The notes under the pieces are model-generated. The model was not told where the DNA came from. It made no database searches and saw nothing but the letters and a program-made list of their open reading frames with translations. DNA of 60,922 nucleotides, taken from the IMG/VR virus record IMGVR_UViG_3300033183_000054, positions 1 through 60,922 of that record. One strand, given 5' to 3'. The stretch comes from a virus (taxonomy: Duplodnaviria > Caudoviricetes). The position numbers and the translations under genes are program-made. Position 1 is the first letter of the stretch, and each line of letters opens with the position of its first letter. This document shows positions 11,083 through 53,922 of this stretch, one piece after another.

Positions 11083-14000
11083 ATGGTACAACAAGTAAAT
11101 ATACAAGGGGTTGGTGTAGTAAATTTCCCTGACAACATGTCACAAGAGGAAATAACTAATGCTATCGAAAATGATATATTAAAAAATGCCATACCCAGCC
11201 AACCTGTAACAGAAGACCCTATATTTAAAGTACAAGAACCTCAACCTCTACCAGCAGATGATGACTCTAGTGATTTTATTAGAGGTATTAAGTCTTACAT
11301 TCCACAACAAAAAGAACTACTTGGTGGTGCTCAAGTATTAACAGGTAAAGCATTTGGTTCAGCAGACATGATACAGTCTGGTCTTGACCGAATGGAGCGT
11401 GCACAAAAAGAACAAATCCCACTATCTAAAGAAACAGACTCGTTTACTGCCGCTTTTGAAAAAGGGCTAGGTGCTGTAATAACTGACTATATACCCTATA
11501 TAGCTGGTCAAGGCGTAGGTATGGTTAGTGAAGCTGTATTGTCTGGTGTAGTTGGTAGTATACTTGGCTCTGTAGCAGGACCTGGTGGTACAGTATCAGG
11601 CGGTGTGTCTGGTGTAGTTGCAAAAAACCTAATTAAAAAGGGTATTAAAGAACAGGCAGAAAAAGAAGCAAAAAAATCTGGTCAAGAAGCTGCTGACAAC
11701 TTTGTCAAAAAAGAAATAAATAAACAGCTTGCAGATCCTAAAATTAATAGCGAACTTAGAAAAGAAGTTAACAAAGAAATAGGTAGAAAACTAGGTTACA
11801 CACAGTTAGCAGCTAGGTATGGTGCAGGTGAAACTACAACCCGTGCAGTAGATGAAGCCATTGCAGGTATAGACAATCCAGAAGAACAACTTAAAAAAAT
11901 ACAAGAACTAAGCACAAGTAAGCTTGCAGCAATAAGTACAGCTCATGCACTAGCAGACTACGTAGGTATTAAAATTGGTCTTGGTGCGTTAGAAGGATTA
12001 GCTCCTACTACAAGAAGTATGCTACTAAATGTAGCTAGAAAGATAGGTATTACAGGTTTACAAGAAGCACCTGTTGAAGTAGTACAAAGTGCATTAGAAA
12101 GATATGGTGCAGACTTACCACTGGCAGATAAACAAGCTATGCGTGAATATGTAGACGCTGCTGCAGGCGGATTCTTTATGCCTATCATACCTGCTACTAT
12201 TGGTGGTATTAGAACTCCTAAACCTATAACAGAAGTGTCTGAACAAGAAACTAAAGAAATATTAGATACTGAAATAGAAGATAAACAACCAGAAAGTTAT
12301 AAAGAAAGTAAAGAAGAAAAAGATTCTAAAAAGAAAATAATAGAAGAAGAAAAAACTGCATCTGAGACAGCAGATGATATAATAAAATCAGAAGAAACAA
12401 TAACGGCTCCAGTAAGCACGCAACAAGAAGACATTCAAAGACAACAAGAATTATTTGACTCACAACAACAAATAATCCAACAAGAACAGGAAGTAGAAGC
12501 AGAACAGCTTGATATGTTCCCGCCTCAGATGGACTTATTTGAAGGAGAAGAAGATGCTGGAATTGACGGACGAACAGATATCAGAAGCGATGAGGTTTCT
12601 GGACAGCCCACAACAAGTGATACCCAAGAACCTGGAGAAACTAAACGACCTTCAGTGGCTAGCAGTGGAAGCACTTTTGACACAGCTTCTGGAAGAACAA
12701 TCACAAACAACACTACATTAAAACGTAATGACGTATTAAATTTTACAGACGAAGAATTAAGAAAGTCAGCAAAACTATTTGTAAACAACCCAGACAACCT
12801 ATCTATTATAGCCAGAGAACAAGCTAAAAGAAGAAATGTCAAAGAAAAACAAAAAATAGATGCTGTAGATAGAAACCAAAAGATAGACTCTTTATTAAAT
12901 AGCATACCTTCAAAAAGAGAACCAACAGATGCAGAATTAGCAGAGTACGAAAAGCGAAGAAAAGACTCTCCTAACTATACCCTTGAACAATATATTGCTG
13001 AACAAGACTTTCTAAAAGCACAAAAAGATAACCCTGGTCTTACCTTTGGTAGATTCTTACAAGACTACTCAAGCCCTACACCGCCTGTAATTACAAAAAG
13101 AACAGAATATGACCAGTATGGTAATCCTATTGAGTTTGAAAGTACTGACCCAGAAGCTAACTTAAAAGTTACAGATAATGCAATAATAAAAACTACTCCT
13201 AATTCTGTATTTGATAGTAATCTAAAACCAAAAGTAACTAAGTATCAAACAGATAACAATTTACAAGACTCCCATGTAATCAAAGAAAATGTAGATACAG
13301 AAGGTAACGTAGAAAGTTTTAGTTTAGTACCTAGAGATACTGTAAAAGACACTTCAGTAGGTTCAGTAGCAGAGTATTTTGCAAATAACTGGATAAAAAC
13401 AAAAGAAGCTTGGAGCACAGGCAAACTAAATAAAAAAGGTGAGCCTATATCTAGGAGAGAAGATAAAGTACCAACGCCAATAGAAGTTAGAAAGTTTTTA
13501 AAAGATAATTTAAATAAAGAACAGTTTGAAGATATAAGAAAACAAAAAAAGTTATTTGAAAAAATAGGTATAGCATCTCAAAAACTATTATATAAACGCA
13601 CTGCAGGTTTAGAAGGTATTAGAGAAGCAAGAAAAATAAGGGAGCAAGAATACGATAATATAGCTAGAGAGCAAGGCGGTATGCAGCCTCTGAATGCCCT
13701 GTTCACGGATACATTTGAAAAGACAGGAGCTATAGAAGAAGATGTTCCATCACCTTATGAAAGAACTAAAGATTTTGTTAAAGCTAGAATAGAAGCAATA
13801 AAAGACTGGGCATTTGAAGCAGCCGAGGATGAGTATGCTTTGAAAAGCAAAAAAGAAATAAACAAAGCTATAACTAAGTTAGCAAAAGAAAGAGGGTATG
13901 AAGAAGGGGAGTTTTCAATCAATGATCCATTAGAATTTATAGACCAAGAAGAATATAACACCATAATTAACGAAGCCCCTAATGTAAAAGATAAGATAAG

Positions 14001-17000
14001 ACTAGATAAGTTTAACGATAAGAAAAAAGTACGAGATAAGTTTGCAGAAACATTTAACGCTAGAGAAAAAGCTGTAGCAGAAAAAATGAAAAACATATTT
14101 GCCGGTGCAGTTAGAGCTTCGACTAAATACAAAGCTTCTCAAAAAGTTATTGGTAAGACAGTCACAGATCAAAGAAAAGAAAATGCTCAGTTAAAAAGAA
14201 TAGAAAAAGAACAAGAAGCCGCTAAACAAAGAAAACGTGGTGCACGCATGGGCGAGACTAAAATATTAACGCCTACTCAATTACAAGCTTTAGAAAATAA
14301 AAATACAACTGATGCAAATAATGACGTGATGGAAGCTATAAAATCAGGTAAGTCTATAGCAGAAATTTTAAAAGTCATAGCAGGCAAAAAAGCAGCAAAA
14401 CTTAACTCTACTCAAACAGTTGCTAATATGCTAGCTAAAGTTATATCTAAAATACCAGGATATAACACTAAAATAAAATTAGGTGTAGTTAGAGGCGATA
14501 GGTTTGCACACTTTGATCCACGAACAAACACTATTGTTATAAACAAGAGAATAGAATTTAGTGCTCCTTCTGGTAGGGTAGAATCGCTGGGCAGGATAGT
14601 AGTACACGAAGTTATGCACTCTATGATGGACCACATTATTGACAATAGAAGTGTACTACCACTAAGTCTACAAAAAGAATTAGACACACTAGAAAAACAA
14701 TATGAATATGTATCTCAAACTTTAAATCCAGTTACGCTAGAACTGTTCGGTATAGATTCATTCAAAGAGTTTGTTGCTGAGATGTTTGCTAGTGAAGAAG
14801 TGCAAAAATTAGTTGGTACTCTAGGTAGGTCTAGAAAAGAAAGAGAGTCTGCATTATTTAAGAAAACATACGGTGATGGAAAAGTTTCAGGTTTCTTAAA
14901 AGATATGGCTAACTTCATACTTAAAACTATAAGAACACTTGGAGGGTTTACTCCAGGAATCACTGCGGCAACTACACTTCAATCTATTGAAAACATAATT
15001 ACATCAAAAGAATATGTACCAGCTAGCGAAACATTACAAGGTAAGGGTATATCCTTTGCTCCTAAAAAAGCTAAAGACATAGGAGACTCTACTCCTCAAA
15101 AAATAAGAGAGACAAACAGAGCAGCTGCAAAAGATTATGAATATAGATCGTGGTTTGGTAATGCTTTCAATACATTCAAAGACTTGTTTGCAAGCGGTGA
15201 AAAGTCAATGACTAACTTAATTAGACGCTTCCAAAACGATAGAATAATATTGAAAAAAATACAGGACGTAGCAAGCAACGCAGGAATATTAACTAGAAGT
15301 GGTAAGTATTTTAACAATATATACGACCAAGTAACTTTAGCTTTAGGTAGAGCGGATAAAATTTTAAGAGAAACTGTAAAGGGTCCTATAGATGATTTTA
15401 CTGAAGCTTTTTCAAGTTATTTAAAATACACTAAACAAAACGAAAGAGATGCGGTAGGAGACTTACAATCATGGCTCACAGCATTTCATGAAGCAGAACG
15501 ACGCCTTGTTAAATTTTTAAGATTTGTTCCTCTAAGTACAAAAGACAATATAACTCTAAGTTCAGGTAGACAAACGAGCGCTGCTCAACTGAGAAGAGAT
15601 ATATTTAAAATACTTACAACTAATAGAAATTTAACAAAACAACAGATTAAGAAATACAGAGACTTACTACAGTCTTTAGCAGATAACTATGCAGATACAA
15701 ATGGACAAAGCTTTAGAGCAGAGGATAGATATAAGTCTATTGATATGAATGACATTGAGTATAGTGTTGTGGGTAAAGGTAAAGGCGAAGGTCCTCTAAC
15801 AGTCACTGAAAGAGATGCTTTAATAGAAGAGTATAACAACCTTCCTGAAGAACAAAAAGCAATCATAGATAAAATAAGAAAGGCTATGAAAGTTATTCAA
15901 GAACAAACCAAAGAATTAAACTTTAAAGCTAACTACATGCCTGTACAAGCTAAAAATATGATTGAATTCTATGGATGGGAAAACTATATACCATTAAAAG
16001 GAAAAACTGAAATAAAAGGAGAGAACGAAGAGTTTCTTGATATTCAAGGCAAGAGATTATCAGGTGATTTAAGAAGAATGGAAAGCACATTTGAAAAAGG
16101 TGCAGAGCAAGCACAAGACCCGTTTGTACAAGTGTTAGTAGATGCAACTGTTGCAGGAGCAAGAGCAGGTAGAAAAGGTCTAACTCAGTCTATAAAAAAT
16201 GCTATAAACACTGATGTATCATACGTAGATGAAAAAGGTAATAAAGTTAAGAAAAGATTAATAGATGGTGAAATAAAAACATATTCTTTTGACGAAAGGT
16301 TTTTAGATGAAATAAAAGAGGATATGAATGACAAGAAAAAGATACTTCACTTTAATGAAGACGGTTCTGTCGATGTAATAAAATTAAAAGACGACGCAGT
16401 ATTAGAAGCAGTTCGTAGAACATATAGAGACTCTCATCCTTTGCTAGATTTAGCCAATGGAGTTACAGGATTATTAGGACAACTACATACTAGATTCAAT
16501 CCTGCTTTCCCAGTATTAAACTTTGTTCGTGATGCATTAACTAACGCTTATGTTATTGCTGCCGAGATAGGACCACGAAGTAGTTTTGATTACCTAACAC
16601 TTGTAGCAGAACAAGTAGTAAAAGGTGGTATGAAAGATACAGCTACAATAGCAAACCTATATAACCAAAACGGTATAGATGGTATAAGAAGGTATGCTAA
16701 AGAACAAGCTAGAAAAGGTAATACTTATCCTCAGTCAGTTATAGAATACCTTGATGAAGGGGGTAACATCGCCTATGTTCAAGGTTTATCTGTTGCAGGA
16801 ACTATGCATACTCTTTCTTCTAAACTAAATAAAAATAAAATATTACAGTCAACAGAAGGCATAACTAAATTCTTTGATAGTGTCATGCTTACTTTTGAAT
16901 TAGCATCTCGTGTTGCAGGTTATCGTGTATATAAACAAGATTTTATGACTGCAAATAAAAATAAAATAATTAACAAAGCCCAGTTAGAAAAAGCAGCTAG

Positions 17001-18291
17001 AGAAGCAGCAGCTGCATATGCTAAAAACTTTGCAAACTTTGAACAAACCGGTGAATATGGTAGAGCGTTAGGTGCATGGTTTATGTTCTTTAGACCGGCA
17101 GCTACCGGTGCAGTTAGAGCTTTAGAAGGTATAGGTCCAGGTTTAAGACGATGGCAAAACGTAGAAGCTCAACTACCAGACTATGTTAGAAACGACCCAC
17201 AAAAACTAGCTCAAACTAAAGCTAACTTTGAAAAAAGACAAAAGGCATCTAGAGCTGTTATATTCTCGTCCGTAGGTATGGGGCTTACCGTATACTACTT
17301 AGCTGCAGCATTATCAGGTGACGACGATGATAATAATAACAAAACGTTTGGTGATGACATGAGACGTTGGACTCGTTACGCTAGGTTTGCAATACCAGGC
17401 ACAGACACTGTATTACAGATACCTTGGGGTTTTGGTAACGGCGGACTTGCCGCATTTGGTGCTCAAATAGCAGGGTTAGCTTCAGGGAAAGAAAACCCAC
17501 CAAGAGAAGTTATAGGTAATATGATTGAGATACTTATGGATTCTTACTTACCTCTTCCTATATCACGTATCAATCCTTTAGAATCACCTGGACACGCAAC
17601 TGCATTTTTAACAGATTCGTTTGTACCTTCAGTTGCAAGACCTTTGTTTGAATATGCTATGAATATGAATGCGTTTGGACAACAGATATATAATACAAGA
17701 AGGTCTAGAGTGGGTGATGCTTATACTGGAGGAGATAACATACCAGATATGTATAAAGACGGAGCTATACTATTAAGTGAGATGACAGACGGATACTTAA
17801 GTTGGAGCCCTAACACCATGTACTTCTTTGCCAACAACCTTGCAGACGGCTGGACACGTATTATGCAAAACACTTACGGACTAGGACTAACATTAGCAGG
17901 ACAAAAAGATTTTGATCCAAAAAGAGACCTACAAATATTTGACAGCTTCTTATCTAAATACTCTAAAGCAGACCAACGGGCTTATGGTAGAGTAAGAAAC
18001 ATTGTAGAGGCAAAACAAAAACGATTAGATGCTAATAAAAATAACCCAGAAGTATATGATCGTTATGTAAATAATAATCCATTAGATCCTATTATAGTAG
18101 AAACGTTTAATACTATAGAAGCTAAAAGGATTAATCCAGCAAGAGCCGATGTAAATGAAATAAGACGTATGCCAGGACTTACACCTAAAGAAAGAAGTGA
18201 TTTGTTAGAACCTAGGAAAGAGGTATTAGATGCATACACTAAAGGTCTTACTGCAGAAATAGAAGTTATGCTAGAAATAGCTGAGGAATAA
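11083..18291 (+). CDS. Giant internal virion polyvalent protein with zincin metallopeptidase motif and LPD38-like C-terminus
   Basis: 2402 aa; VVHEVMHS (HExxH) with downstream EFVAE; C-terminal hydrophobic helices and QIPWGFG; last gene of the virion arm. Confidence 0.75.
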   Translation: MVQQVNIQGVGVVNFPDNMSQEEITNAIENDILKNAIPSQPVTEDPIFKVQEPQPLPADDDSSDFIRGIKSYIPQQKELLGGAQVLTGKAFGSADMIQSGLDRMERAQKEQIPLSKETDSFTAAFEKGLGAVITDYIPYIAGQGVGMVSEAVLSGVVGSILGSVAGPGGTVSGGVSGVVAKNLIKKGIKEQAEKEAKKSGQEAADNFVKKEINKQLADPKINSELRKEVNKEIGRKLGYTQLAARYGAGETTTRAVDEAIAGIDNPEEQLKKIQELSTSKLAAISTAHALADYVGIKIGLGALEGLAPTTRSMLLNVARKIGITGLQEAPVEVVQSALERYGADLPLADKQAMREYVDAAAGGFFMPIIPATIGGIRTPKPITEVSEQETKEILDTEIEDKQPESYKESKEEKDSKKKIIEEEKTASETADDIIKSEETITAPVSTQQEDIQRQQELFDSQQQIIQQEQEVEAEQLDMFPPQMDLFEGEEDAGIDGRTDIRSDEVSGQPTTSDTQEPGETKRPSVASSGSTFDTASGRTITNNTTLKRNDVLNFTDEELRKSAKLFVNNPDNLSIIAREQAKRRNVKEKQKIDAVDRNQKIDSLLNSIPSKREPTDAELAEYEKRRKDSPNYTLEQYIAEQDFLKAQKDNPGLTFGRFLQDYSSPTPPVITKRTEYDQYGNPIEFESTDPEANLKVTDNAIIKTTPNSVFDSNLKPKVTKYQTDNNLQDSHVIKENVDTEGNVESFSLVPRDTVKDTSVGSVAEYFANNWIKTKEAWSTGKLNKKGEPISRREDKVPTPIEVRKFLKDNLNKEQFEDIRKQKKLFEKIGIASQKLLYKRTAGLEGIREARKIREQEYDNIAREQGGMQPLNALFTDTFEKTGAIEEDVPSPYERTKDFVKARIEAIKDWAFEAAEDEYALKSKKEINKAITKLAKERGYEEGEFSINDPLEFIDQEEYNTIINEAPNVKDKIRLDKFNDKKKVRDKFAETFNAREKAVAEKMKNIFAGAVRASTKYKASQKVIGKTVTDQRKENAQLKRIEKEQEAAKQRKRGARMGETKILTPTQLQALENKNTTDANNDVMEAIKSGKSIAEILKVIAGKKAAKLNSTQTVANMLAKVISKIPGYNTKIKLGVVRGDRFAHFDPRTNTIVINKRIEFSAPSGRVESLGRIVVHEVMHSMMDHIIDNRSVLPLSLQKELDTLEKQYEYVSQTLNPVTLELFGIDSFKEFVAEMFASEEVQKLVGTLGRSRKERESALFKKTYGDGKVSGFLKDMANFILKTIRTLGGFTPGITAATTLQSIENIITSKEYVPASETLQGKGISFAPKKAKDIGDSTPQKIRETNRAAAKDYEYRSWFGNAFNTFKDLFASGEKSMTNLIRRFQNDRIILKKIQDVASNAGILTRSGKYFNNIYDQVTLALGRADKILRETVKGPIDDFTEAFSSYLKYTKQNERDAVGDLQSWLTAFHEAERRLVKFLRFVPLSTKDNITLSSGRQTSAAQLRRDIFKILTTNRNLTKQQIKKYRDLLQSLADNYADTNGQSFRAEDRYKSIDMNDIEYSVVGKGKGEGPLTVTERDALIEEYNNLPEEQKAIIDKIRKAMKVIQEQTKELNFKANYMPVQAKNMIEFYGWENYIPLKGKTEIKGENEEFLDIQGKRLSGDLRRMESTFEKGAEQAQDPFVQVLVDATVAGARAGRKGLTQSIKNAINTDVSYVDEKGNKVKKRLIDGEIKTYSFDERFLDEIKEDMNDKKKILHFNEDGSVDVIKLKDDAVLEAVRRTYRDSHPLLDLANGVTGLLGQLHTRFNPAFPVLNFVRDALTNAYVIAAEIGPRSSFDYLTLVAEQVVKGGMKDTATIANLYNQNGIDGIRRYAKEQARKGNTYPQSVIEYLDEGGNIAYVQGLSVAGTMHTLSSKLNKNKILQSTEGITKFFDSVMLTFELASRVAGYRVYKQDFMTANKNKIINKAQLEKAAREAAAAYAKNFANFEQTGEYGRALGAWFMFFRPAATGAVRALEGIGPGLRRWQNVEAQLPDYVRNDPQKLAQTKANFEKRQKASRAVIFSSVGMGLTVYYLAAALSGDDDDNNNKTFGDDMRRWTRYARFAIPGTDTVLQIPWGFGNGGLAAFGAQIAGLASGKENPPREVIGNMIEILMDSYLPLPISRINPLESPGHATAFLTDSFVPSVARPLFEYAMNMNAFGQQIYNTRRSRVGDAYTGGDNIPDMYKDGAILLSEMTDGYLSWSPNTMYFFANNLADGWTRIMQNTYGLGLTLAGQKDFDPKRDLQIFDSFLSKYSKADQRAYGRVRNIVEAKQKRLDANKNNPEVYDRYVNNNPLDPIIVETFNTIEAKRINPARADVNEIRRMPGLTPKERSDLLEPRKEVLDAYTKGLTAEIEVMLEIAEE

Positions 18292-49622: not shown

Positions 49623-50534
49623 ATGGCAATTTCAAGAGCTCAGTTATTAAAAGAACTGCTCCCAGGTCTTAATGCTTTATTCGGTATGGAATACCAGCGT
49701 TATGGCGAAGAGCACAAAGAAATCTACGAAACAGAATCATCAGAAAGAAGTTTCGAAGAAGAAACAAAACTATCAGGCTTCGCAGCTGCCCCTAACAAGG
49801 CTGAAGGCGCTGCAATTGCGTATGACAACGCACAAGAAGCTTGGACAGCTAGATATAATCACGAAACCATTGCTTTAGGTTTCTCACTAACAGAAGAAGC
49901 TGTTGAAGATAACCTCTACGACACTTTATCTGCTCGTTACACTAAAGCATTAGCTCGTGCTATGTCTTACACAAAACAAGTTAAAGCTGCTAACGTTTTA
50001 AACAACGGCTTTGACGGTACTAACTACCCAGGCGGTGACGCTAAAGCATTATTTGCTACAGATCACCCATTAGTAAACGGCGGTACAAATAGCAATACGC
50101 AGTCAACAGCTGCTGACTTAAACGAAACTTCATTAGAAAACGCAGTTATTCAGTTAGCTGGTTGGACAGATGAAAGAGGTTTATTAATTGCTGCTAAACC
50201 ACGTAAACTAATTATCCCACCAGCACTACAGTTTGTGGCTACTCGTTTATTAGAAACTGACCAAAGAGTTGGTACTGCTGATAACGATACAAACGCATTA
50301 CGTAGTAACGGTGCGATCCCAGAAGGATACACAGTAAATCACTTCTTAACAGATACTGATGCATACTTCTTAACAACCGATGTTCCTAACGGTATGAAGC
50401 ACTTCGAAAGAACTGCATTAACTACTTCTATGGACGGCGACTTCGACACAGGTAACGTACGTTACAAAGCTCGTGAGCGTTATTCATTCGGTTGGTCAGA
50501 TCCCCTCGGTATGTGGGGCTCACAAGGTGCTTAA
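49623..50534 (+). CDS. Major capsid protein (HK97 fold)
   Basis: MAISRAQLLKELLPGLNALFG; P..LI.PPAL; KARERYSFGWSD; strong RBS and downstream terminator. Confidence 0.93.
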   Translation: MAISRAQLLKELLPGLNALFGMEYQRYGEEHKEIYETESSERSFEEETKLSGFAAAPNKAEGAAIAYDNAQEAWTARYNHETIALGFSLTEEAVEDNLYDTLSARYTKALARAMSYTKQVKAANVLNNGFDGTNYPGGDAKALFATDHPLVNGGTNSNTQSTAADLNETSLENAVIQLAGWTDERGLLIAAKPRKLIIPPALQFVATRLLETDQRVGTADNDTNALRSNGAIPEGYTVNHFLTDTDAYFLTTDVPNGMKHFERTALTTSMDGDFDTGNVRYKARERYSFGWSDPLGMWGSQGA

Positions 50535-50558
50535 TTAGTTAAGTACTTTCTCTCCTCG

Positions 50559-50587
50559 AAGACCCAGTTTCGGCTGGGTTTTCTTTT
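50559..50587 (+). terminator. Rho-independent terminator after the MCP
   Basis: AAGACCCAGT-TTCG-GCTGGGTTTT then CTTTT. Confidence 0.88.
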
Positions 50588-50682
50588 ACCTATAACTAAT
50601 GGTTTTCTTTATAGTTTTTCTTTTTAATATCAATACAATACATATATCAGCTATGCTGAAATTTAATTTAAGGAGAATCATT

Positions 50683-50754
50683 ATGTGGACAACACCATCA
50701 GCAACAGAAATGAGATTTGGTTTTGAAGTAACAATGTACGTATGTAACAAGTAA
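50683..50754 (+). CDS. pqqA: PQQ precursor peptide PqqA (23 aa; not in ORF track)
   Basis: MWTTPSATEMRFGFEVTMYVCNK shows the W..P leader and GFE-x-x-x-Y motif; TAAGGAG RBS at 50669-50675. Confidence 0.95.
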   Translation: MWTTPSATEMRFGFEVTMYVCNK

Positions 50755-50849
50755 GTATATAATTTAAAAACTTATTATCTATTCGGTACGGTGGCTAGGA
50801 AACAGCCTGAATCGTTTAAAAGGGATAATATTTTAAAAGCACCAACATT

Positions 50850-50872
50850 AAAGGGCCTAGTGTCCTTTTTTG
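50850..50872 (+). terminator. Terminator closing the pqqA unit
   Basis: AAAGGGC-CTAGT-GTCCTTT then TTTT. Confidence 0.6.
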
Positions 50873-50901
50873 TTGTATAATGTCTATAAAATGTGTATCA
50901 T
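50873..50901 (+). promoter_or_regulatory. Sigma70-type promoter of the post-capsid operon
   Basis: TTGTAT-17 bp-TATCAT. Confidence 0.55.
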
Positions 50902-50909
50902 TTAGTTAT

Positions 50910-50966
50910 TCGGGAAACATCGACTTATCTAACTGCCCCGACAGACGCATACACGATAGATAAGTT
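50910..50966 (+). ncRNA. Predicted pseudoknotted 5'-leader RNA
   Basis: TCGGG(50910-14)/CCCGA(50937-41) crosses GACTTATCTA(50922-31)/TAGATAAGTT(50957-66). Confidence 0.55.
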
Positions 50967-50989
50967 TAACTTTGTATGGAGACATTATA

Positions 50990-51466
50990 ATGGCAAGATC
51001 AACCTTTTCAGGTCCAGTCACATCTAATGCTGGCTTTAATGGACCAGTCGTAGTAGACAATACTACACTCAACACAGGCGCAGCGGTTACAACAACTCTT
51101 ACACGCGCTCAATCAGGAACATTATTTGAAGTAGACGGCACAGACGACATTGTTGTTAATATGCCAGCTCTAAGCACAGATAACCCAGGTACAACCTATG
51201 AATTTTTTGTAACCACAGCCGTTGGTTCAGGTAAAACAGTAACATTTGTGTTACCAGGTTCAGCAGTATCTAATTTCTATGGCGCTTTATCTCTTATGGG
51301 TGGCGCAGCGGCTAACCCAGCAAGTGACGTTGCAGGTGATACATTAACATTAGTAGCTACAACAGCAGTTAATGCAAGAGTTAAACTAACATGTATTTCT
51401 GATGACGGTACTAACTCTACATGGAAAGCTGAAACACTTTCTACACCAATAGCAACTATTGCATAA
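50990..51466 (+). CDS. Virion structural protein (possible capsid fibre/decoration)
   Basis: MARSTFSGPV start after GGAG; Thr/Gly-rich beta protein. Confidence 0.7.
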   Translation: MARSTFSGPVTSNAGFNGPVVVDNTTLNTGAAVTTTLTRAQSGTLFEVDGTDDIVVNMPALSTDNPGTTYEFFVTTAVGSGKTVTFVLPGSAVSNFYGALSLMGGAAANPASDVAGDTLTLVATTAVNARVKLTCISDDGTNSTWKAETLSTPIATIA

Positions 51467-52681: not shown

Positions 52682-52802
52682 AAAACAGTATCAGTTTATG
52701 AAAGCGGTAGCCAATAATCCTAAGTTTGCAAAGAAGGTAGGTGTACCTACAAAAGTAGGTAAAGAATTTACAAAGAAACCAAAGTCCAAAAGGAGAAAAT
52801 AA
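52665..52802 (+). CDS. 45-aa basic protein (not in ORF track)
   Basis: MPAKSKKQYQFMKAVANNPKFAKKVGVPTKVGKEF... Confidence 0.7.
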   Translation: MPAKSKKQYQFMKAVANNPKFAKKVGVPTKVGKEFTKKPKSKRRK

Positions 52803-53158
52803 TGGGCGACGAAAAAAAGAAAAAAGTAATTAAACCTGAAGACGAAAAAAAGCGTATTAAGGACATGGCTAAAGAAGAACGCATGAAAAAAATTCTTACT
52901 AAAGATATGGAAACGTTCGGACCTAGAGAAGAATCTAAACCTATGAAATCTATGAAGTCTAAGGACCCAATGGTTGGAGTAGTTAAAGAACCAGGACCTA
53001 TGAGTGGAAATATGCTTAAGGAAAAGAAAAAAGCTGGCGGTAAGATTGGTATGGGTATGACTAAGAATAATTATAAAAAAGGTGGCAAAGTTTCCTCTTG
53101 CTCTAAACGAGCTGATGGCTGTGCTAAACGTGGTAAAACTAAAGGACGGATGGTTTAA
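52802..53158 (+). CDS. Basic protein with KKGG...GKTKGRMV C-terminus
   Basis: AGGAG RBS; shared C-terminal motif. Confidence 0.75.
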   Translation: MGDEKKKKVIKPEDEKKRIKDMAKEERMKKILTKDMETFGPREESKPMKSMKSKDPMVGVVKEPGPMSGNMLKEKKKAGGKIGMGMTKNNYKKGGKVSSCSKRADGCAKRGKTKGRMV

Positions 53159-53160
53159 TT

Positions 53161-53340
53161 ATGAAACCTGTAGACAAAGAAAAAAACCCTGGACTAGCTA
53201 AACTACCAACGGAAGTTCGTAACAAAATGGGCTACATGAAAAAAGGTGGTAAAGTTGGGTATAAAAAAGGCGGTAAAGTTAAAAAGTGCAAACGTGATGG
53301 TATTTGCAAAAAAGGTAAGACAAAAGGACGCATGGTATGA
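53161..53340 (+). CDS. 59-aa basic protein with KKGG...GKTKGRMV C-terminus (not in ORF track)
   Basis: MKPVDKEKNPGLAKLPTEVRNKMGYMKKGGKVGYKKGGKVKKCKRDGICKKGKTKGRMV. Confidence 0.75.
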   Translation: MKPVDKEKNPGLAKLPTEVRNKMGYMKKGGKVGYKKGGKVKKCKRDGICKKGKTKGRMV

Positions 53341-53519
53341 TGAAATGTCGTGGCATGGGCAAAGCCATGAAGCCTGTAGCATTTAAAAATGGCGGTTCTA
53401 CTAAAAATAAAACCAACAAAGACGCATGCTACCACAAAGTAAAAGCAAGCTACAAGGTATTTCCTAGTGCATACGCATCTGGTGCTATTGCTAAGTGCAG
53501 AAAGAATAAAGGTAAATAA
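53337..53519 (+). CDS. Small basic protein
   Basis: RGMG, FKNGG and DACY.KVK..Y.VFPSAYASG.I.KCRK. Confidence 0.7.
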   Translation: MMKCRGMGKAMKPVAFKNGGSTKNKTNKDACYHKVKASYKVFPSAYASGAIAKCRKNKGK

Positions 53520-53520
53520 A

Positions 53521-53922
53521 ATGGTAGATAAGACTAAAAGAAAAGACTATATGAAGTCTAGAATTACTGAAGGCAAAAAAGAAAAAGGAGCTAAACATTT
53601 AGATTCTAGTAATCAACCTACAGCTAGACAAAAAGGATATGCTAAAGGTTTAAAAGAGCAGAAAGATTTTATGGAAGGTTCTAAAGCTAGAAAGTATTTA
53701 GGTGAACTTTATGGTGTTGGGTTTAGTGAAAAAACAGAACTACCTACTTTAAAAGATAGTGATGAAAGACTAAAAAATAATACTGGTGCTCAAGGAAGAA
53801 ACCAAGGACGTAAGGACATGGCTGAAGCTAAAAAGAAAAACATGAAAAAAGGTGGCATCGTTAAAAAATGCAAACGAGACGGTATTTGTAAAAGAGGTAA
53901 AACTAGAGGTAGAATGGTTTAA
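53521..53922 (+). CDS. Basic protein with KKGG...GKTRGRMV C-terminus
   Basis: Start refined to MVDKTK; third copy of the motif. Confidence 0.7.
   Translation: MVDKTKRKDYMKSRITEGKKEKGAKHLDSSNQPTARQKGYAKGLKEQKDFMEGSKARKYLGELYGVGFSEKTELPTLKDSDERLKNNTGAQGRNQGRKDMAEAKKKNMKKGGIVKKCKRDGICKRGKTRGRMV

Follow-up and report, generated by a model that had tools for sequence, protein, structure and literature searches.

What is a gene for the precursor peptide of a bacterial cofactor doing behind the capsid gene of a phage, and what might the phage gain from it? The question is raised by IMG/VR record IMGVR_UViG_3300033183_000054, analysed here over its whole length (60,922 bp, the window), in which the major capsid gene is followed by a 72-nucleotide (nt) open reading frame (ORF) for PqqA, the precursor of pyrroloquinoline quinone (PQQ). 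This pqqA ORF is intact, runs from an ATG at 50683 to a TAA at 50754 on the plus strand and encodes the 23-amino-acid (aa) product MWTTPSATEMRFGFEVTMYVCNK. Two profile hidden Markov models (HMMs) match the peptide over their full length, PF08042 at 41.3 bits against a curated cut-off of 21.1 and the equivalog model TIGR02107 at 43.3 bits against a cut-off of 20, and because both scores lie far above the curated cut-offs the ORF is confirmed as a genuine PqqA. An earlier, sequence-only reading of this DNA had made the same identification, describing a 72-nt ORF with a TAAGGAG motif between two terminators; every detail of that description proved right on re-reading, and the PqqA assignment is corroborated by the two HMMs. 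The residues that are cross-linked in PQQ synthesis (E-x-x-x-Y) are present in the translation as Glu15 and Tyr19 (E-V-T-M-Y), and the ORF is very short, as PqqA genes are (about 20-40 aa), with a ribosome-binding site (RBS) of its own, the Shine-Dalgarno (SD) sequence TAAGGAG read at 50669-50675 on the plus strand, 7 nt 5' of the ATG. An in-frame 51-aa ORF from an ATG at 50599, overlapping pqqA, is also found in the ORF list; we disfavour this start, since the extension is not conserved in relatives and both the RBS and the HMMs favour the 23-aa form.

The gene stands alone. In PQQ synthesis PqqE, together with PqqD, cross-links the Glu and Tyr of PqqA, after which PqqB, PqqC and peptidases act, and one PqqA peptide is consumed per PQQ (PMC12124388, PMC9851590; here and below, papers are cited from the parts available to us). 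The profile search found a single PqqA match in the record, which CheckV rates as 97% complete, and searches for PqqB, PqqC, PqqD, PqqE and radical S-adenosylmethionine (SAM) relatives in the same record returned no match, in agreement with the earlier statement that pqqB-E are missing from the window. The lack of pqqBCDE as company is not disqualifying, because most pqqA copies of Methylophilaceae hosts are orphans too. What we find is a host-type metabolic gene within a bona fide virus genome and with viral genes on both sides, as is expected of an auxiliary metabolic gene (AMG). The virus itself is best explained as a lytic-looking 61-kb phage resembling Pelagibacter phage HTVC023P: its capsid gene is 67% identical to that of HTVC023P in nt and about 66% in aa, and the module order GroES-like gene, three genes, capsid gene is common to both.

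Is pqqA a fixed part of this type of phage? We scanned IMG/VR with a degenerate DNA pattern for the GFEVTMY core of the peptide, a scan whose counts are minimum figures and do not represent a random sample. The core occurs in at least 120 IMG/VR contigs, and all 120 listed have an intact PqqA ORF. The window-type capsid protein is present in at least 20 of the listed pqqA contigs, and also in a contig from a genome collection (L232), and at no fewer than 18 loci (17 IMG/VR contigs and L232) pqqA follows on the same strand, 85-1,900 nt past the capsid stop. A chimeric join between phage and host DNA, the case named by the sequence-only reading as fatal to its claim, is very unlikely because this junction recurs in at least 18 independent loci and an RNA-library contig spans the pqqA of a relative into the next gene. 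Of the 80 best capsid relatives (82-98% aa identity), 69 contain a complete capsid gene with 400 nt or more of sequence behind it, and pqqA follows the capsid gene in 10 of the 69. The median gap between the capsid gene and the next gene is 167 nt without pqqA (n=12) versus 488 nt with it (n=10), and the corresponding spacer of HTVC023P measures 154 nt. The cassette is an accessory insertion of 250-350 nt in the spacer that separates the capsid gene from the structural gene behind it. Five long relatives lacking the cassette, four of them 99-100% complete, were searched entire and had pqqA nowhere; the same search recovered pqqA in 5 of 5 positive controls.

The history of the insertion was traced on a 'quick' capsid tree of 88 rows, for which 6 of the 18 pqqA-bearing rows were added from the pqqA-selected set and from which L259 and L075 were dropped (fewer than 270 aligned residues). 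One clade of 15 (SH-aLRT 86), within which the capsids have diverged by about 15%, holds 14 of the 18 pqqA-bearing rows, the window among them, and the presence of pqqA needs 6 changes on the tree versus 16.3 for shuffled labels, none of 500 shuffles being as low. Four pqqA-bearing rows lie outside this main clade, and two of them bear different PqqA types in the same slot. Since most carriers fall in one clade and outliers have other PqqA types in the slot, the cassette is mostly inherited within a sub-clade and has also been gained or replaced independently. Such other PqqA types, e.g. ...YEKIRLGFEVTMYFKNS and ...EYTEMRFGFEVTMYIANK, were seen in relatives L026, L032 and L110 (in the post-capsid slot) and in L033 (elsewhere), which suggests independent captures from other PQQ-making hosts. 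One phage without pqqA, L282 (IMGVR_UViG_3300025280_001003), is nested in the pqqA-bearing clade with a spacer of 186 nt, and this looks like a clean loss of the cassette.

The gene recurs in phages that are unrelated to this lineage. A tblastn search of the window peptide against 50,697 phage records (E up to 1; a Methylophilaceae-type query, which may miss distant PqqA) matched 12 records, of which 10 are genuine phages: nine isolates whose hosts are OM43 or LD28 (P19250A, Venkman, MEP301, MEP401, MEP402 and four Melnitz phages), plus an uncultured podovirus from a spring (ctXG6705). The nine isolates are the matches found, not a share of all Methylophilales phage records; HIM624-A, MEP431-434, Venkman EXVC038S, MG-MTP1 and RSA-MFP1 were not among the matches, their presence in the searched collection not being established. 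We inspected seven loci, one Melnitz locus standing for four Melnitz records, and in all seven found an intact ORF with an RBS and a TIGR02107 score above the cut-off (34-41 bits), for peptides of 23-24 aa that are 68-91% identical to the window peptide. These genes lie at L002:2524-2595 in P19250A, L003:2504-2575 in Venkman, L004:2513-2584 in MEP301, L005:1018-1089 in MEP401, L006:2119-2190 in ctXG6705, L007:621-692 in MEP402 and L008:3995-4069 in Melnitz. Their positions differ: in Venkman, MEP301 and the spring podovirus, pqqA adjoins recombination genes and is encoded on the other strand from its neighbours; it is near recombination genes and convergent with the downstream genes in P19250A; it heads an operon in MEP401 and MEP402; and it precedes a tRNA-Leu gene in Melnitz. 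Common gene callers pass over ORFs below about 90 nt, and pqqA is annotated in none of the ten phage records; its bases are left without a feature or, in Melnitz and ctXG6705, are covered by a hypothetical protein called on the other strand. The other two matching records, contigs named 'Acinetobacter phage MD-2021a', were rejected as phage, as they contain a complete bacterial ppk-pqqABCDE region and appear to be host DNA; in one of them (L009, CAKLQF020000010.1 104210-112263) ppk, pqqA-E and a membrane dipeptidase gene follow in bacterial order on a 144-kb contig that resembles a host chromosome.

In total, 128 viral loci cluster by shared neighbour proteins into 19 components, and all five cultured methylophage lineages sampled carry pqqA. 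The stand-alone state is general: pqqB-E are found in 0 of the 120 listed IMG/VR pqqA loci, where the same queries match 17-27 of 120 listed host loci. An SD-like motif precedes the gene in 126 of the 126 viral loci with enough upstream sequence and in 115 of 125 host loci. Viral and host copies also have a common mRNA-like layout, with hairpins on both sides that fold better than shuffles; for the 48 nt upstream of pqqA this holds in 80% of 118 viral and 82% of 120 host loci.

By the rule of our script, the ORF is intact in 127 of the 128 viral loci. The 117 viral ORFs that could be codon-aligned comprise 107 distinct nt sequences and only 43 peptides, the commonest peptide being encoded by 18 different DNA sequences, and Arg11 is invariant in the viral set despite the use of five codons. 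The Glu and Tyr columns of this set were fixed by the search pattern, so that conservation there is by construction; outside the codons so fixed, pN/pS (the ratio of nonsynonymous to synonymous polymorphism) is 0.27 over 101 distinct sequences, and for codons 2-8 and 20-23 it is 0.34 in the viral versus 0.30 in the host copies. Viral pqqA is under purifying selection, and since synonymous change accumulates alongside a conserved protein, selection acts on the peptide.

Which host does the peptide point to? One genome per prokaryote species was scanned with the pattern EMRFGFEVTMY, again giving lower bounds and not random samples. At least 120 host loci matched; among those listed, 91 are named Methylophilaceae, Methylophilales, OM43 or genera of that family, 24 have broader labels (Burkholderiales, Betaproteobacteria, Nitrosomonadales, Proteobacteria) and 5 are otherwise named: an Acidovorax metagenome-assembled genome (MAG; two contigs), a Rhodocyclaceae MAG, a Pseudomonadales MAG and the phage contig L232. 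This peptide type is almost confined to Methylophilaceae genomes, and among the matches listed hosts and viruses have the same commonest peptide. At the nt level the nearest relatives of the window gene are viral (95.7% identity within its own lineage, 92.8% in two other contexts); the best sampled host match is 89.9%, and the phage-host range is 85-90% over the 72 nt. Stretches identical to the capsid gene occur in contigs of RNA libraries from seawater, salt marsh and one run labelled 'freshwater', and DNA runs from marine, estuary and lagoon samples hold about 0.35-0.39 of the window's sampled words, a weak hint at habitat. Given the peptide type, the habitats of the RNA libraries and a G+C content of 38%, the host is best taken to be a marine or estuarine OM43-type member of the Methylophilaceae. 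The earlier assignment of the host to this family is supported by the near-exclusive peptide type and by the fact that all cultured carriers infect OM43 or LD28. Contig L232 (G001:C455), a 12-kb piece of the window phage lineage with a capsid 84% identical to that of the window and pqqA behind it, was co-assembled with a Gammaproteobacteria-labelled genome of 3.3 Mb. We rejected it as a host link; pqqA, pqqC and pqqE are otherwise missing from that genome, in which the phage contig is probably a contaminant.

Methylophilaceae have 3-12 pqqA copies per genome versus one pqqBCDEFG set (PMC4109929), and an OM43-sized marine MAG in our host scan, with three pqqA copies on contigs other than the one with pqqC and pqqE, fits this range. 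Hosts thus amplify pqqA alone among the pqq genes; each XoxF methanol dehydrogenase requires one PQQ, and xoxF is always the top transcript in OM43 (PMC5120137). Taken together with the conserved, host-type character of the viral copies, we think it rather probable that the phage pqqA is an AMG that supplies the consumable precursor of PQQ, a function deduced from its sequence and genomic setting. The phage peptide would be processed by the PqqB-E (and F/G) enzymes of the infected Methylophilaceae cell, as must be the case because the phage encodes no maturation enzymes, and the identity between phage and host peptides fits a substrate that has to be recognised by the host's PqqD and PqqE. Extra PqqA could keep the precursor available as host transcription declines, and a sustained supply of PQQ to XoxF could in turn maintain methanol-derived energy during infection. 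One more pqqA, under the phage's own signals, would pull the same lever as the amplification of pqqA by the host. We infer in this way that the gene is expressed in infection, that its product is processed to PQQ and that the phage benefits.

The same short gene could instead be mere passenger DNA, a highly transcribed piece of the host repeatedly picked up by illegitimate recombination and persisting without benefit to the phage. The cassette is tiny and cheap to carry, and its presence in only 10 of 69 close relatives and absence from four complete ones would suit such a history. However, a passenger would hardly remain intact at 127 of 128 viral loci with an SD motif at every locus where one could be seen, nor have a pN/pS of 0.27, like that of host copies; it would also have to turn up in 19 genomic contexts and in each of the five cultured lineages sampled, and to have been handed down in a clade with about 15% capsid divergence, and we consider this explanation unlikely. 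A further idea is that the phage peptide indeed leads to PQQ, yet for a use other than energy, such as releasing so much PQQ into the periplasm or the surroundings that a PqqU-like TonB-dependent receptor is closed, against superinfection or against adsorption of progeny to debris. In E. coli PQQ closes PqqU and blocks the PqqU-dependent phage IsaakIselin (PMC12124388), and OM43-like genomes hold 2-4 TonB-dependent receptors; nothing links these receptors to PqqU, PQQ or methylophages, however, and one receptor common to 19 unrelated phage contexts is hard to expect, which makes receptor masking quite improbable.

The peptide might also act as a decoy, as a regulator or as the substrate of another enzyme, for instance by tying up PqqD and PqqE. 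Precursor peptides do bind the PqqD chaperone before modification (PMC9851590), but this is nothing specific to a decoy, the phage peptides retain every conserved position, many being identical to host peptides, and the window has neither a radical-SAM enzyme nor any other enzyme for peptides that are made on ribosomes and modified after translation (RiPPs); we regard this role as very improbable. Finally, the 85-90% phage-host nt identity over 72 nt, and the vicinity of recombination genes to pqqA in podoviruses and P19250A, bring to mind an attP-like patch of homology for integration into, or recombination with, the host chromosome. For the window this is largely refuted and, in general, scarcely credible: no tyrosine integrase was matched in the window, the best host identity of 89.9% comes without a long identical core, and neither synonymous change with a conserved peptide nor an RBS present throughout the viral loci is what a recombination site calls for.

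Several observations nevertheless count against precursor supply as the role of the gene. Most close relatives manage without pqqA, and the gene is therefore dispensable for this type of phage. PQQ is stable and reusable, so that a need for new synthesis in each infection cycle is an assumption; PqqA may not be the limiting step, and engineering reports cited in PMC9851590 obtained modest PQQ gains from pqq over-expression. The exact window peptide is not among the 128 host ORFs sampled; it is one residue off each of two host variants, and both differences occur singly in hosts. A consensus promoter scan of the cassette region found no plus-strand promoter, and a strong terminator stands in front of the cassette. 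The RNA libraries are likewise of limited help to this reading. Contigs over the pqqA bin (50688-50751) in runs X15, X16 and X18, from marine or salt-marsh samples, reach a summed depth of ~65,000-100,000, well beyond that of any other part of the window, and capsid bins have depths from tens to about a thousand, contig depth being no measure by which genes can be ranked. Because the contigs on the pqqA ORF branch into other contexts at the stop codon, the deep ones come mostly from hosts or other phages, and the contig in which a relative's pqqA runs into the next gene may reflect DNA carry-over or host transcripts. These data, which cannot be assigned to this phage, hint that coastal metatranscriptomes count pqqA-type mRNAs among their most abundant ones.

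How new is a phage pqqA? The sequence-only reading had cautioned that such genes may already be reported, and indeed one was published in 2020, so that its estimate of novelty was too high: Coutinho et al. (PMC7678222) described PqqA in the T4-like Methylophilaceae phage population VP_266 from Lake Baikal and proposed an AMG boosting methanol oxidation. VP_266 and the window have in common a phage-borne PQQ precursor with a proposed AMG role in Methylophilaceae hosts; however, VP_266 is a freshwater, T4-like population that also encodes a methanol dehydrogenase, and radical SAM proteins are encoded by the sister population VP_139, whereas the window belongs to a marine or estuarine 61-kb HTVC023P-like phage with pqqA as the sole PQQ-related gene found, in a post-capsid cassette (no PQQ-repeat dehydrogenase, PF13360, was matched in the window). 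Viral pqqA, pqqD and pqqE are placed under phosphorus-related genes in a reservoir study of 2026 (PMC13188868), and in a 2024 RiPP survey PqqA figures only as a family from bacteria that is co-expressed with defence systems (PMC11118758), as far as the available parts of these papers go. Phage pqqA is unmentioned in the accessible main text of the Melnitz and MEP401/402 papers, and a term count gave no occurrence of 'pqq' in the MEP301 and Venkman papers; the supplementary tables of these papers may list it. Neither the available part of the global-ocean auxiliary-gene catalogue (PMC11360552) nor that of the main text of the MG-MTP1 paper mentions it, and our literature search found no paper combining HTVC023P with OM43. 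The window therefore presents a known kind of gene on a new phage backbone; within the literature searched, the post-capsid cassette, its presence/absence polymorphism, the occurrence in five cultured lineages and the consistent stand-alone state appear to be new.

The window copy shares with orphan pqqA genes of Methylophilaceae chromosomes the peptide type, often identical, the short hairpin-bracketed mRNA with a strong RBS and the position away from pqqB-E; it differs from them in lying between virus structural genes and in having viral copies as its nearest nt relatives. The copies of cultured methylophages sit on unrelated backbones and in other positions, none of them behind the capsid gene, and HTVC023P, a phage of SAR11, differs in having no pqqA match. 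A familiar counterpart is psbA of cyanophages, a phage copy of the fastest-consumed component of the host's energy harvesting, which encodes a full protein and has experimental support. In this analogy the product of the window gene is, by contrast, a 23-aa substrate dependent on four or more host enzymes, and it is known here from genes. Whether pqqA is a signature auxiliary gene of Methylophilaceae phages, repeatedly captured without the enzymes, equivalent to psbA and hidden by its shortness, seems to us evenly balanced.

Should pqqA prove to be such a signature gene, it would follow that the supply of precursor peptide, and not that of enzymes, limits PQQ-dependent methanol oxidation in infected cells, and the peptide type could be used as a marker to predict the hosts of uncultured methylophages. 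In coastal seas and lakes, OM43 and its relatives from fresh water are major users of methanol and other one-carbon compounds, and their XoxF needs PQQ; if phage pqqA tops up the only ingredient of PQQ that is stoichiometrically consumed, infection would reshape one-carbon oxidation, with PqqA supply as a control point. Standard annotation misses the gene, and a dedicated PqqA search would add an entry to the catalogue of marine auxiliary genes and give a family-level host marker for more than 100 uncultured contigs. Several pqqA-carrying phages and their hosts are in culture, which makes direct testing possible.

The cassette itself appears to be a small self-contained unit of the 'moron' kind, made up of a 5' hairpin, an RBS, the ORF and a terminator, with an uncertain promoter. 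All features that follow are on the plus strand. The capsid gene (49623-50534) is followed at 50558-50589 by a terminator-like hairpin with a T run (stem 50558-50583, 11 pairs, 5 of them GC), and a hairpin with a T run occupies this place in 15 of 15 aligned relatives. In the alignment of these 15 capsid-pqqA intergenic regions, partly conserved columns mark a box, AATGGTTTTCTTTA, at 50598-50611; as a repeated phage promoter motif it was rejected, with 10 matches in the window (up to 3 mismatches) versus 16.7 expected. A putative weak -10 element, TACAAT, was deduced from the alignment at 50634-50639, and most aligned relatives have an ATAAT-like element 5-8 nt before the 5' hairpin. This hairpin, a short stem-loop (TCAGC-TAT-GCTGA) at 50647-50659, lies just before the RBS, and its place is kept by hairpins of differing sequence in the relatives. 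The cassette ends with a second terminator-like hairpin and T run at 50850-50875 (stem 50850-50868, 7 pairs), which relatives keep as GGGGC-loop-GCCCC-TTTTTT; in the region 50400-51100 there are 4 terminator-like sites versus 0.4 expected from shuffles. Directly after it comes TATAAT (50876-50881), -10-like for the next structural gene and conserved in relatives as GT(T/A)ATAAT, and then the next gene of the structural module (50990-51466; MARSTFSGPV...), an ORF whose conserved N-terminus served as a landmark. The plan of the 15 aligned spacers is accordingly capsid terminator, box, ATAAT-like element, hairpin, RBS, pqqA, GC-rich terminator, TATAAT and a long leader. Of the hallmarks of a moron, the terminators and the insertion polymorphism are seen directly, and the only candidate for a promoter is the weak -10-like element from the alignment. 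The expression 'late' in infection put forward by the sequence-only reading is not borne out by this layout, in which a strong terminator separates pqqA from the capsid gene and the weak -10-like element precedes pqqA.

Between pqqA and the second terminator the window has an additional 3' untranslated element of about 90 nt (50767-50856), shared with L088 alone at 90% identity across 90 nt; none of the other aligned relatives has it, and it matched no host locus. By eye, this element has a possible stem with two compensating changes. A structured RNA as the content of the cassette was rejected: the fold of the whole cassette is not better than that of shuffles (z = -0.99), and an Rfam search of the window, the 3' element included, gave no family match.

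Over the whole genome, the products recognised are TerL, an 818-aa portal-like protein, the GroES-like protein and the capsid protein (Phage_capsid_4 at 45.8 bits and Mu-like_gpT at 42.1 bits in Pfam), together with a DNA polymerase of family A, an SNF2 helicase, a nuclease of the PD-(D/E)XK type and a primase-like protein with DUF927; the window contains no tRNA genes. Three small, very basic ORFs (52802-53158, 53161-53340 and 53467-53922) share a near-identical C-terminal motif, …KKGG.V…C.KR.DG.C.KRGKT.GRMV, and are possibly paralogous internal virion or DNA-binding proteins. A single ORF of 2,402 aa occupies 11083-18291 on the plus strand, in a low-G+C part of the genome (33-37%).

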